From: Coprobacillaceae bacterium
Lineage (GTDB): Bacteria; Bacillota_I; Bacilli_A; Erysipelotrichales; Coprobacillaceae
Assembly: GCA_963675915.1 (NCBI GenBank)
Contig: OY780959.1
Location: forward strand, 120,001-152,000
Direction of reading: 5' to 3'
Length of the DNA stretch: 32,000 nucleotides
This document shows positions 2,996-6,938 of the stretch, piece by piece. Under the pieces are notes generated by a model that did no database searches, was not told the origin of the DNA, and worked only from the letters and a program-made list of their open reading frames with translations. Both the position numbers and the translations under genes were made by a program. Numbering within the stretch: the first letter of the stretch is position 1; the number at the start of each line of letters is the position of its first letter.

Positions 2996-3271
2996 ATGGA
3001 TAGAAACTGTATTAAATCTAAAATTGATTCTTATTTAAATGAAAATGAAATTACTACCAACCAATACAAATCAATTGTCAATCTGATGGAGTTGGTGAGT
3101 TACAAGATTGATTGTGGCGAAAAAATTGGTAGAAGTTACTATGAAAATCGCATTTTTGAAATTATGCCTGATATCGAAGGCGAGGAACATGTTTGCGAGT
3201 ATATCGCTAAATTATTTTTGAACGTAGAAAATAACGGAAACGTCTATAAATCTTTTTATAAAGAAATTTAG
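2996..3271 (+). CDS. hypothetical protein (91 aa, acidic, no motif recognised)
   Basis: Strong RBS (GGGGGA) 6 nt upstream of the ATG; coding-like composition. Confidence 0.5.
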   Translation: MDRNCIKSKIDSYLNENEITTNQYKSIVNLMELVSYKIDCGEKIGRSYYENRIFEIMPDIEGEEHVCEYIAKLFLNVENNGNVYKSFYKEI

Positions 3272-3400
3272 GAGCGTTGCCAACTATAACAGTCTGGTTT
3301 TGAATCATGCTGATTGGCTTTGCCGCTGATTGATTGTGATTCATTTCTCTCTGTATATTTTAATAATAATAATAACTAATTTGCCTTAATACCATACCAT

Positions 3401-3424
3401 GACGACGTCAAAGTCGTCTTTTCA
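3401..3424 (+). terminator. intrinsic terminator
   Basis: GACGAC-gtcaaa-GTCGTC followed by TTTTC. Confidence 0.5.
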
Positions 3425-3561
3425 TTTGCCTGGGGATCAGGTTATAATCTTAAGATTCCCTTAATAATTCCAAGAATATTTGCGCGTGTTTTTCAATGAG
3501 TTTACAATAAACATGTAAAGTAGATTTAATTATAATGGAAATCATAAGAGGGGGAAATTGG

Positions 3562-3732
3562 ATGAACCGACATTTGATTATCAGATTCTTGGCGGCCCTG
3601 GTCTGGTTGGCGATGGCTGTTTTCGAATATTTCAATGATCAGCTTGCGCTGGGAATTATTTATCTTGTTTTTGGAATCACATTCCTGATTCAGACCATCC
3701 GGTTGTTTCGAAAAAAAGATAATGGCTGCTAA
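3562..3732 (+). CDS. small membrane protein (56 aa, two TM helices)
   Basis: ATG 3562 is preceded by AGAGGGGGA. Hydrophobic sequence LIIRFLAALVWLAMAVF...LGIIYLVFGITFLI. Confidence 0.55.
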   Translation: MNRHLIIRFLAALVWLAMAVFEYFNDQLALGIIYLVFGITFLIQTIRLFRKKDNGC

Positions 3733-3745
3733 AACGATAACGACT

Positions 3746-3770
3746 AAAAGTCACGTGAGTGACTTTTTTG
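3746..3770 (+). terminator. intrinsic terminator
   Basis: AAAAGTCAC-gtga-GTGACTTTT followed by a T run. Confidence 0.8.
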
Positions 3771-3845
3771 TATTATATAAGTAGGGGATATGTTGTTGTT
3801 CCTGGTTTTATAATACGTTTATATAGAATATGATATAATGGGTTT

Positions 3846-4071
3846 GTAGAGATGTTCAAACCATGAGATTCCTTTTAGGAAAGCTCGCAAAAACTGCTGT
3901 AGCTTTGACTACTGTTGGCAGTCACCTCTACACTATATGAACATATGAAGCCGGGGCAATTAATTACTCTCGGCTTTGTTTTTTTGTAGGCATACAAATA
4001 ATAGAGTGAAGGAAAGCAAGGATATGTGGCTTTTGGAACTTCGAGTTCGTAAATAAAAATATCCTGCTTCC
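3846..4071 (+). ncRNA. candidate structured ncRNA in the IS110 left arm (possible bridge RNA)
   Basis: Extended -10 TGaTATAAT at 3831-3839. Hairpins follow: GGTTTG/CAAACC (3841-3863), GAGATTCC/GGAAAGCTC, ACTGC...GCAGT, and AAGCCG/CGGCTT plus a T7 run (3948-3985). A 13-bp stem (4011-4025 with 4059-4071) encloses a symmetric 10/10-nt internal loop and a distal hairpin GAACT-tcg-AGTTC (4036-4048). Function is inferred, not shown. Confidence 0.3.
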
Positions 4072-4203
4072 TTTTGTGACTAAGAATCCGTTTAAATCTA
4101 AGTAGGACGACATATAGTGTTGAACCTGTATCCATAACAAAAATTGGTCAGTCATGAAAAAGGGAGTTTGCTTTCACTAAAATACAGAAAGAAGGAATGA
4201 AGA

Positions 4204-5412
4204 ATGCAAGGCCCAGTAATTGCCATTGACGTTTCGAAAGGTTCCAGTCACATGCAGGGATACTCTGAATTCAATGTCAAATTGCACAAAGTCAAAGTAA
4301 TCACCCATAACAAGTCCGGTTTTCAGGAGATTATCGCACTCAAAAATGAGTTGGCACAGAAAACCGGAAAAGAAGTATCAGTAGTATTCGAAGCTACCGG
4401 AGTATATCATCGGCCTCTGGAAAAGTTTCTTACAGACAATGGAATCAGGCATTATGTTATCAATCCATTGATTGCTGCAAAAGTCAGAAAAAGTTCGAGT
4501 CTTAGAAGTCCTAAAACCGACAAGTTAGACCCCAAAATAATTGCCAAAGTATATTACACCAAACAGCTACGAATTAACCACAAACGAAGCGACAAATACC
4601 ATCAAATGCGAGAATTGTCGAGATATTATGAAGATTTGATGAATCATATCCGAAAAGACAAGGTGACTTTTAGAGCGTATCTCGATATGGTTTTTCCTGG
4701 TTATGGCGAATTATTTGATGATCTGTACGCTGACGGTTCTTTGACAATTTTAGAGAAATATCCCCATCCGGAGTTGCTTGCAAAAAAGCATACTAAGACA
4801 GTCTCCAAATATGTCCAAAATCATACTTGTCATCGAGAAAAGGTCAGTAATTATTTGGCTATAAAAGTGATTGAATTTGCCAAAACTGTTTATTCGTGTT
4901 GCGAAAAAGATGATGTGGAGGTTGAGCTGCTTAGAAGACAACTTATGATCTTGAAGAACCATAAAAAAGAGGCTGACGACATATTGGATAGGCTAATCTA
5001 TTTGGCCCAAGATATCCCGAACTTTGCAATCATCAAAAGCATCCCGGGGATTGGGGATAACTTAGCCAGTAGAATTATAGCCGAACTTGGAGATATTGAT
5101 AAATATGACAGATATCAACAAATTGTAGCTGCCGCCGGAATTGATCCTAGAGTCTATCAATCAGGGAAGAAAGATGGTCACCACATGAAAATATCCAAAA
5201 AAGGTAATAAAAGATTGCGGACTCTTCTATACTTGGCGGTGAGAGGGTCTATCAGATGGAAGGACAATAAAATCAAAGATTATTACAAAAAGAAAAGGCA
5301 GCAATCGAATCCGATGAATTCGAAAGCCGCCAAGATTGCATGTGCTACTAAATTGATTAGAATAATCTATAGCATGTGCAACACCGGTACATTGTACCAA
5401 TATGATTTATAA
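4204..5412 (+). CDS. IS110-family transposase/recombinase (DEDD N-terminal domain plus Transposase_20 C-terminal domain)
   Basis: N-terminus VIAIDVSKGS...VVFEATGVYH; C-terminus IKSIPGIGDNLASRIIAELGDIDKY...AAGIDPRVYQSGKK...ISKKGNKRLRTLLYLA. RBS GAAGGAA. Confidence 0.9.
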   Translation: MQGPVIAIDVSKGSSHMQGYSEFNVKLHKVKVITHNKSGFQEIIALKNELAQKTGKEVSVVFEATGVYHRPLEKFLTDNGIRHYVINPLIAAKVRKSSSLRSPKTDKLDPKIIAKVYYTKQLRINHKRSDKYHQMRELSRYYEDLMNHIRKDKVTFRAYLDMVFPGYGELFDDLYADGSLTILEKYPHPELLAKKHTKTVSKYVQNHTCHREKVSNYLAIKVIEFAKTVYSCCEKDDVEVELLRRQLMILKNHKKEADDILDRLIYLAQDIPNFAIIKSIPGIGDNLASRIIAELGDIDKYDRYQQIVAAAGIDPRVYQSGKKDGHHMKISKKGNKRLRTLLYLAVRGSIRWKDNKIKDYYKKKRQQSNPMNSKAAKIACATKLIRIIYSMCNTGTLYQYDL

Positions 5413-5735
5413 ACTTATTATACAACGACTCGCTGTGAAAAAAAAGCCATTTTCATGGCCTTTTCGTCGTTGTTTCAAATGATATGGAAATCTTATTAGT
5501 AAAAGACTTGATTTCTATTACCTAATTTTATTTGCTTCATTATTGGCATTTTTTCAAGGCTGAGAGTTGCCAAGATAAATCAGAAATTTTAATTGTGAAG
5601 CGGTGTTTTAAAGAAAATGATTGACTCTATGACTGATATAGAGATTATGATTGGATAAACTGGAAATGGTTTAAATTCAGATGATCTTTAATCAGAAGGG
5701 TTACTGTGATTTAAGATCTTACAAAAAGGAGAAAA

Positions 5736-6938
5736 ATGATGTTTAAAGAAACAGACAAGGAATTCAGCTATGAAACTTCAATCCTGCGTCAAGGGGCTTA
5801 CGTAAATGCCCCGGTCGACAATCCGGAAGCACTGCCGCTGTATCTGACGACGGCTTTCAATGTCGAAGATCTGGATGATTTGTATCAACGTTATGAAAAC
5901 AAAGGGTATTGTTATAATCGCAACCGCAATCCCAACCGCACAGCCTTGATTGAGCTGATGTCATACTGTGAAAACGGGGAGGCTTCAGTCATCTGCAGCT
6001 CGGGGATGGCCGCAATATCGACTTCAATCATGACAATGGTGAAATCGGGCGACCATGTGCTGTCGGATATGACTTTGTATGGTGAGACAATTGAAATATT
6101 TACGAATATCTTAAGCAATTACGGGGTTACTGTCGATTTTGTGGATTTCACCAATTTGACTGATGTCAAGGCCGGAATCAAAGAAAATACCACGCTGCTG
6201 TTTACTGAGACAGTGTCCAACCCGATGATAACGGTACCCGATATCGAGCATATTGCCAAACTGGCTCATCAGGCCGGGGCTATCTTGATCGTTGATAACA
6301 CCTTCATGACATCGGTTGCCTTTAAACCTTTGGACCATGGGGCGGATATCGTAGTTAATAGTCTTACCAAATTTGCCAACGGACACAGTGATGCGGTTTG
6401 CGGGGCAGCGACGGGATCGAAGGAACTGATTGATCGGATCCTGGCCAATCAGGTCTTGTTGGGAAGTCAGGCGGATCCGTTTACTTCATGGCTGGTTGCC
6501 AGAGGAATGCGGACAATGCAACTGCGGGTTGAAAAGCAAATGGTGAATGCCGCGAAACTTGCGGCGGCGCTGGAGCGGTCACCTTATGTAAAAAAAGTCT
6601 TCCACCCAGCCCTGGATTCCCATCCTCAGCATGATTTGGCTCTTAAAGAATTCAAAACGGTCGAAAAGTGTGGCGGGATGATAACCGTTTTACTAGAGGA
6701 TGATCTTGGGAAAATGAATGATTTCATGCGAAAACTAAACCTGGCCCATTATGCCATGACTTTGGGGGGCTATCGTACTACACTTTCCCATCCGGTATCT
6801 TCGTCACACTATGACACTACCGAAGAGGAGCGAGCCAAAATGGGGATATCATTCGGTTTGCTCAGGATATCGGTGGGAATTGAAAATCCCGATGAACTGG
6901 TTGCGGACTTCATTAATGCGCTGGAAGTCTACGCTTAG
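5736..6938 (+). CDS. Cys/Met-metabolism PLP-dependent enzyme (cystathionine gamma-synthase/beta-lyase/methionine gamma-lyase family), paralog 1
   Basis: About 400 aa. SSGMAAIS, DNTFMTS and the PLP-lysine motif NSLTKFANGHSD are present. It carries YNRNRNPNR where the family usually has NPT. RBS AAGGAG. Confidence 0.8.
   Translation: MMFKETDKEFSYETSILRQGAYVNAPVDNPEALPLYLTTAFNVEDLDDLYQRYENKGYCYNRNRNPNRTALIELMSYCENGEASVICSSGMAAISTSIMTMVKSGDHVLSDMTLYGETIEIFTNILSNYGVTVDFVDFTNLTDVKAGIKENTTLLFTETVSNPMITVPDIEHIAKLAHQAGAILIVDNTFMTSVAFKPLDHGADIVVNSLTKFANGHSDAVCGAATGSKELIDRILANQVLLGSQADPFTSWLVARGMRTMQLRVEKQMVNAAKLAAALERSPYVKKVFHPALDSHPQHDLALKEFKTVEKCGGMITVLLEDDLGKMNDFMRKLNLAHYAMTLGGYRTTLSHPVSSSHYDTTEEERAKMGISFGLLRISVGIENPDELVADFINALEVYA

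Follow-up and report, generated by a model that had tools for sequence, protein, structure and literature searches.

A stretch of 436 nt separates the terminator of a small gene from an IS110-family recombinase gene in the DNA analysed here (32,000 nt of a Coprobacillaceae genome, hereafter the window), and the question raised by this locus is what that seemingly "empty" stretch encodes. The original prediction described it as non-coding but structured and proposed positions 3831-4071 as a candidate bridge RNA. We concluded that the segment 3768-5527 is very probably an intact IS110-group insertion sequence (IS) lying in the T-tract of a host terminator, and that its left end encodes a two-loop bridge RNA used by the recombinase. 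The bridge RNA would account for the 436-nt region, and the terminator of the upstream gene was the insertion site.

The type of recombinase that a bridge RNA requires is encoded adjacent to the structured region. The 402-aa protein encoded at 4204-5412 (forward strand, as are all features below unless noted) matched Pfam DEDD_Tnp_IS110 (PF01548, E 1.3e-27) and Transposase_20 (PF02371, E 4.5e-25), and it is homologous to the solved IS621 and ISCro4 recombinases. The domain matches and the alignment point to a DEDD domain of the RuvC-like type together with a Tnp domain that has the catalytic serine. Three stretches that we take to hold the catalytic residues, FEATG, KTDxxD and Y-x-S-G, align with those of the IS621 transposase (8wt6). 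A compound hairpin found after the transposase stop (5422-5473) lies within the right end of the IS and is not target DNA; it is probably the transposase terminator, since the sister copies keep a hairpin and T run at the same place (CCCTGAAAAAAAGC.CTTTTTCTTCAGGG).

The boundaries of the element were fixed from sister copies, independently of the loop sequences. Relatives were gathered by DNA and protein searches of related genomes, and a sister clade (L005, L006, L007, L018, L022, L024) was found with ~60% protein and ~65% DNA identity to the window element. A decayed same-genus copy (L004, treated below) and numerous more distant relatives were recovered as well. L005, L006, L018 and L024 are alike from TCGTATTAT on and are preceded by unrelated DNA; on the other side the sister copies are alike up to ..ATTATCCAA or ..CTTGATTTCTATTATCCAA and then diverge. 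The common sequence runs from T(C/T)GTATTAT to ..TA(T/C)C(C/T)AA, with unrelated flanks on both sides. Carried over to the window, these limits place the left end from 3768 (TTGTATTAT..) and the right end to 5525 (..ATTACCTAA), so that the IS110-family element spans ~1760 bp at 3768-5527. It is composed of a left end of 436 nt that lies wholly within the IS (3768-4203), the transposase gene (4204-5412), a right end of 113 nt (5413-5525) and the right copy of the core, TT (5526-5527). At both element ends a TT follows the boundary-side T run. The use of other copies to define the IS ends, as proposed in the original prediction, thus puts the left end at 3768 and not downstream of 4071.

A left boundary at ~3877 had been suggested by the recurrence of the segment 3763-3876 on its own at three places (L016, L002 and L019). 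It was ruled out by the sister copies, which start at 3768, and for the same reason the recurring pieces are taken as left-end stubs and not as target DNA. One of these solo stubs is found in the element's own genome (L002, G000:C1:1182299-1182362) and two in the genome G047 (L016 and L019); they are 64, 114 and 30 nt in length, respectively, and 78-97% identical to 3763-3876. All three stand directly after terminator-like hairpins, with no transposase or right end following, and they may have been left behind by lost copies or have arisen through partial recombination.

The host sequence on the left of the element is the intrinsic terminator (3746-3767, by terminator scan) of a small gene at 3535-3732, and the element is inserted in the T-tract of this terminator. 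Its 3' arm and T-tract form the left target half, as judged by identity to the 5' strand of the first loop described below: the left target and core read GTGACTT+TT at 3759-3767, with the core copy at 3766-3767. On the right side, the core copy TT (5526-5527) is followed by the right target half TTATTTGC (5528-5535). We searched two same-genus genomes for the empty site and neither flank was matched at the DNA level; where exactly the crossover falls within the T run is therefore taken from homology, with TT as the putative crossover core. The element's own genome contains no further exact copy of the reconstructed target, GTGACTT-TT-TTATTTGC (GTGACTTTTTTATTTGC), and near matches there are no commoner than those of a reversed-pattern control. 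The absence of a second exact target fits the presence of only one copy of the IS in that genome.

The flanks of two relatives are unusual. In L035 (G106:C38) the same 10 nt, TGTATAGTCA, are present on both sides of the IS and are parted from it only by the TT core, which looks like either a direct repeat longer than those usually produced by IS110 elements or a target repeated in tandem. In L031 (G208:C44) the sequence after the right end and core, TCGTATAAGG, is similar to the start of a left end and suggests an insertion beside a left-end stub or a collapsed tandem.

Two modules lie at the 3' side of the left end. The first module (4008-4074) has the architecture that had been predicted: a 13-bp interrupted stem (4011-4025 with 4059-4071, extending to 4008/4074), two loop strands of 10 nt each, GUGGCUUUUG (4026-4035) and GUAAAUAAAA (4049-4058), and a 5-bp distal hairpin (4036-4048). 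The centroid structure gives this stem, loop and hairpin layout with a z-score of -3.34, and none of 200 shuffled sequences (0/200) folds as well. When 4005-4166 is folded in full as a single sequence, the result does not surpass its shuffles (z -1.18), and a search of 3000-6500 against Rfam 15 with E values up to 10 returned chance-level matches only. Durrant et al. (PMC11208160) give a strand rule for bridge-RNA loops, which was applied here: each 5' strand has the same sense as the left half with the core, and each 3' strand is the reverse complement of the core with the right half. The left target guide GUGGCUUUU (4026-4034) is same-sense to the left flank GTGACTTTT (3759-3767) with eight identities and one G-T wobble (9/9). 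The right target guide GUAAAUAAAA (4049-4058, reverse complement TTTTATTTAC) pairs with TTTTATTTGC (5526-5535) at 10/10 positions, nine pairs and one U-G wobble. The proposed likeness of the layout to an IS110/IS621 binding loop is thus borne out by strands that match the flanks in the published geometry, and the near-complementarity noticed earlier between the second strand and 5526-5535 proved to be the right target half. The other earlier match, complementarity of 4027-4034 to 5442-5449, was rejected because the latter site is located within the IS, in the hairpin after the transposase gene, and because a 5' loop strand should be same-sense to the left flank, as it is here, and not complementary to its site. 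Fold, covariation, guide-flank matches, a permutation test and the hypervariability of the left guide (the last three taken up below) all support a target-binding loop at 4008-4074.

The second module (4070-4163) adjoins the target-binding loop on its 3' side. It is recognized by consensus fold and covariation and by guides that co-vary with the IS ends in relatives, and we read it as the donor-binding loop. Its closing stem pairs 4070-4080 with 4151-4163, the distal hairpin is at 4104-4127, and the internal strands are ~21 nt each. Within the left donor guide AUCUAAGU (4096-4103), AUCUAA (4096-4101) gives six contiguous matches, one U-G wobble included, to ACCTAA at the right-end terminus, with a mismatch at the first core position, where the guide has G instead of T in the window and most relatives have A. 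The right donor guide ACAAAA (4137-4142) is the reverse complement of TTTTGT, i.e., the core and the first four left-end bases (6/6). Across lineages, left ends that begin with TCGT go with a right donor guide of ACGAAA, and those that begin with TTGT with one of ACAAAA. Likewise, left donor guides of ATCCAA, ATCTAA, AACTAA or ATCAAG each equal the same hexamer of that element's right end. The right-end terminus itself (5508-5525) carries a -35 box TTGATT (5508-5513) and the left donor half ..ACCTAA (5520-5525); it belongs to a 27-nt block kept in the sister copies, and the motif TTGAYW-N5-TAYCYAA is found family-wide. All four guides match when the loop strands are compared with the donor junction and the flanking target, a comparison that the original prediction had proposed. 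Its interval of 3831-4071 holds only in part: the target-binding loop falls at its 3' edge, 3831-4007 is a conserved 5' extension, and the donor-binding loop is outside it.

A covariance model of both loops (R1) gave a full-length match just upstream of the transposase in 23/23 loci and in 10/10 further places, i.e., 33 places among the relatives whose upstream stretch was present in the sequence searched (the 10 places are from multi-copy genomes, and two of them re-sample the 23 loci). The matched relatives reach down to ~37% protein identity. Across the alignment of 23 sequences, 89.9% of the cells are paired, compared with ~42% when the partners are slid, and both sides have changed in 31/35 pairs; since the alignment was fitted to R1 and the sequences are related, these pairing figures lean high, and the contrast to the slid controls is still large. 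The covariation of the stems that was called for earlier is therefore present. The minus-strand open reading frames at 3875-4135 and 3964-4155 have no counterpart of at least 40 aa in the left end of the sister element, and together with stems kept by compensatory changes this agrees with the earlier description of the left end as non-coding but structured.

The sequence 5' of the loops (3777-4007) is not guide. In the circular form, in which 5525 is joined to 3768 via TT (..ACCTAA-TT-TTGTATTAT), the -35 box TTGATT (5508-5513) stands 17 nt from a -10 box TATTAT (3771-3776), read from the sequence. These hexamers and the 17-nt spacing are conserved across the family, and they would reconstitute a sigma-70 promoter across the RE-LE junction, as expected of a circular form. 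Directly after the junction -10 box are hairpin 1 and a short U run (3777-3811; -7.9 kcal/mol, z -2.13), with an equivalent in the left ends of all relatives. Next in order is an internal extended -10-like box, TGATATAAT (3831-3839), which is the extended -10 that the original prediction had pointed out after the terminator. A -10-like box just upstream of the P1 helix is present in the relatives as well, and in the window it is presumably a promoter for the 5' extension and possibly for the bridge RNA too. It is followed by a three-way-junction domain (3845-3932), in which P1 pairs UGUAGAGAUG (3845-3854) with CACCUCUACA (3923-3932) and encloses two hairpins. The terminator-like hairpin 2 and U7 come after this domain (3948-3985), where a hairpin-plus-T7 had been predicted; the arms AAGCCGGG/CUCGGCUU at 3948-3976 are followed by U, G and U7, the fold is -13.2 kcal/mol (z -2.76), and the stem is fully compensated in relatives. 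RNAalifold of 7 sequences (effectively three lineages) detected compensatory changes in 22/37 pairs of the junction and hairpin region. The extension is ~240 nt long, and a conserved motif, GUAGGCAUAC (3986-3995), lies directly 3' of hairpin 2 and U7. The order of hairpin, U-rich run and YAGGCAUR is found in essentially all relatives, and the motif, G(U/C)AGGCAU(A/G) in 3986-3995 and its equivalents, is kept down to ~37% protein identity. By inspection we found no pairing partner for it, and it could be a processing or protein-binding site.

Hairpin 2 and U7 stand between both candidate promoters and the loops. A promoter between the hairpin and the first loop was considered, on account of -10-like AATAAT/TATAAT sequences in the window and the sister clade, and was dropped because these are not conserved in distant relatives. 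As no conserved promoter 3' of hairpin 2 and U7 was found among the relatives, the loops must be reached by read-through. The bridge RNA of IS621 reportedly has a 5' stem-loop, to which hairpin 2 may correspond; alternatively, hairpin 2 may be an attenuator or terminate a small RNA of its own. The last possibility can be stated as an alternative: 3831-3985 would specify an independent small RNA of ~140 nt, running from after TGATATAAT to the hairpin and U7, which is separate from the bridge RNA or regulates it, e.g., as an attenuator/antiterminator switch. We consider this alternative tentative. A promoter-like box immediately upstream of the helix that closes the three-way junction, and then a hairpin and U run, all conserved with compensatory changes, are what it would lead one to expect, and the family-wide order of hairpin, U-rich run and YAGGCAUR agrees with it. 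However, some relatives (L039, L040) lack the three-way junction and keep the hairpin and the loops; in L040 the hairpin, with a poor U run, comes right after the promoter-like box and resembles the 5' stem-loop of the IS621 bridge RNA; and a conserved promoter downstream of the hairpin that could drive the loops separately is lacking. Such a small RNA is in any case compatible with the bridge RNA reading of 4008-4163.

We also considered whether the element is a dead relic whose RNA is no longer functional, which we regard as unlikely. The single copy in its own genome is in line with this, as is the state of the lineage in the same-genus genome G047, which contains a decayed copy besides the left-end stubs. 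The decayed copy (L004, G047:C1, ~1254744-1255946) belongs to the same IS lineage; its transposase gene is in fragments, and its left end is intact (83% identical at the DNA level over 3764-4161), with loop strands that differ from those of the window element (UCGGUUUUUU / UUCGCAAAAAA). In the window element, by contrast, the transposase open reading frame is intact with its catalytic motifs aligned, all RNA helices are intact, and the guides still match the flanks almost perfectly; in addition, the transposase protein cluster has four more members in one sister genome (2.57 Mb). A transposase search of the genome contigs detected one locus, 37% identical. The named database relatives, at ~60% identity, are from Catenibacterium and Holdemanella; no close relative of the lineage was found among the named records searched, and exact-pattern scans of metagenomes gave no further copies.

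Comparison of the guides with their own flanks across relatives bears on whether the left end is a bridge RNA or a leader. The left guide scored a mean of 7.79/10 against its own flank compared with 6.93 for swapped pairs (permutation p ~5e-5, n=24), and the right guide 7.67/10 compared with 7.30 (p ~0.01, n=21); the high background is due to the T runs common to all guides and flanks. In four near-identical sister left ends, 6/7 columns of the left target guide are variable compared with 19/452 elsewhere, a hypervariability that reads as the signature of a re-programmed guide. A left end that serves only as a cis-regulatory leader of the transposase (promoters, attenuators, translational control), with the loop-flank matches a T-rich coincidence, would fit the two terminator-like hairpins after the two promoter-like boxes, the long-held belief that IS110 non-coding ends regulate transposase expression (background in PMC11208160) and the inflation of match scores by T runs to a swapped-pair mean of ~7/10, but it is highly improbable in view of guide matches that are found outside the T runs too (GTGRC for the left guide, ATTTRC for the right one), the co-variation of guides with IS ends across lineages, the advantage of own over swapped guide-flank pairs, and the concentration of variation between near-identical copies in the 7-nt left guide, which a leader does not predict.

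In relatives, guides often match their flanks incompletely, at 6-9/10 positions. By inspection of the printed flanks, ~14/17 left flanks consist of a hairpin and then a T run, and the left guide reads the 3' arm and T run. In the multi-copy genomes G179, G327 and G271, copies with one common guide are located at different terminators, which they match in part; guide-target mismatches are evidently tolerated. Three of the four copies in G179:C1 (L050-L053) have one left guide in common (ACCUUCUUUU) but are inserted at different, partially matching terminators, and one or two positions distinguish their right guides, which suggests that mismatches are tolerated on the left side.

The boundaries, the two modules with their covariation, the guide-flank and guide-end matches and the conserved junction hexamers are established at the sequence level, and the following mechanism can be proposed for the bridge RNA. 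Transcription of the RNA would start either at the junction promoter of the circular form or at the internal TGATATAAT box and continue past the hairpin and U7, and the RNA would bind the recombinase. Its first module (4008-4074) would be the target-binding loop, and its second (4070-4163) the donor-binding loop, which would read the excised circle's RE-LE junction just as the first reads the target. The recombinase (4204-5412) loaded with the bridge RNA would unite circle and target and recombine both at the TT core. A broader and more doubtful proposal, in which we place little confidence, is that this Erysipelotrichales clade departs from the IS621 paradigm in two linked ways, lineage-specific terminator targeting and expression of bridge RNA and recombinase gated by the 5' extension. 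Each lineage would then address one intrinsic terminator (3' stem arm and T-tract), and within a genome only a copy whose 7-nt left guide has changed could spread, which would explain the extreme guide variability between near-identical copies. The 5' extension, with its two promoter-plus-terminator-like units and optional three-way junction, would be the attenuator or switch.

Bridge RNAs guide DNA recombination in a programmable manner, and their natural diversity informs tool design. The element described here is a cleanly delimited Firmicutes example with a TT core and long target guides (9 and 10 nt). Its natural safe-harbour target would be a terminator T-tract, the left guide of the family appears to have been visibly re-programmed many times, and the 5' extension could add a layer of control over expression of the bridge RNA.

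Among known systems, the IS1111 group (seekRNA or bridge RNA) shares the recombinase superfamily and the two-loop logic; in that group a long right end carries the RNA (PMC11208160), whereas here the left end is the longer one (436 vs 113 nt) and carries the RNA. Membership in the IS1111 group was ruled out by the longer left end and by the R1 matches upstream of the transposase gene. CazIS110-1 of Caloranaerobacter azorensis, published in a study of copy-out and direct-transfer pathways (bioRxiv 10.1101/2025.10.25.684509), is likewise a Firmicutes IS110 bridge-RNA element with the RNA in its left end, a likeness drawn from its description. The closest published parallel for the targets is ISPpu10 of Pseudomonas putida, where a target stem-loop adds specificity beyond base pairing (bioRxiv 10.64898/2026.03.19.712850). 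In ISPpu10 the stem-loop lies directly 5' of, or overlaps, the left target half, comparable to the hairpin and T run of most left flanks here. The ISPpu10 target is one conserved multi-copy intergenic repeat, whereas a different terminator is used in each lineage here.

The closest comparison for the element as a whole is IS621 of E. coli (PMC11208160, PMC11208158). Both have a DEDD and Tnp recombinase, an RNA in the left end, a promoter split across the RE-LE junction, and a target-binding loop followed by a donor-binding loop, each with a stem, internal loop and hairpin and the same strand senses; the guide lengths here, 9-10 and 6-8 nt, are in or near the published ranges. The protein similarity to IS621 is distant (phmmer E 1e-14, mostly in the Tnp domain), the core is CT in IS621 compared with the proposed TT here, and the IS621 target is a REP element, in contrast to a terminator arm and T-tract. 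Also unlike IS621, the left end here is 436 nt with an extension of ~240 nt 5' of the loops, and the internal strands of the donor loop are ~21 nt. Large catalogues of bridge RNAs have already been published (PMC11208160), and we conclude that this locus is an ordinary but well-supported addition to the IS110 bridge RNAs, a system described in 2024.
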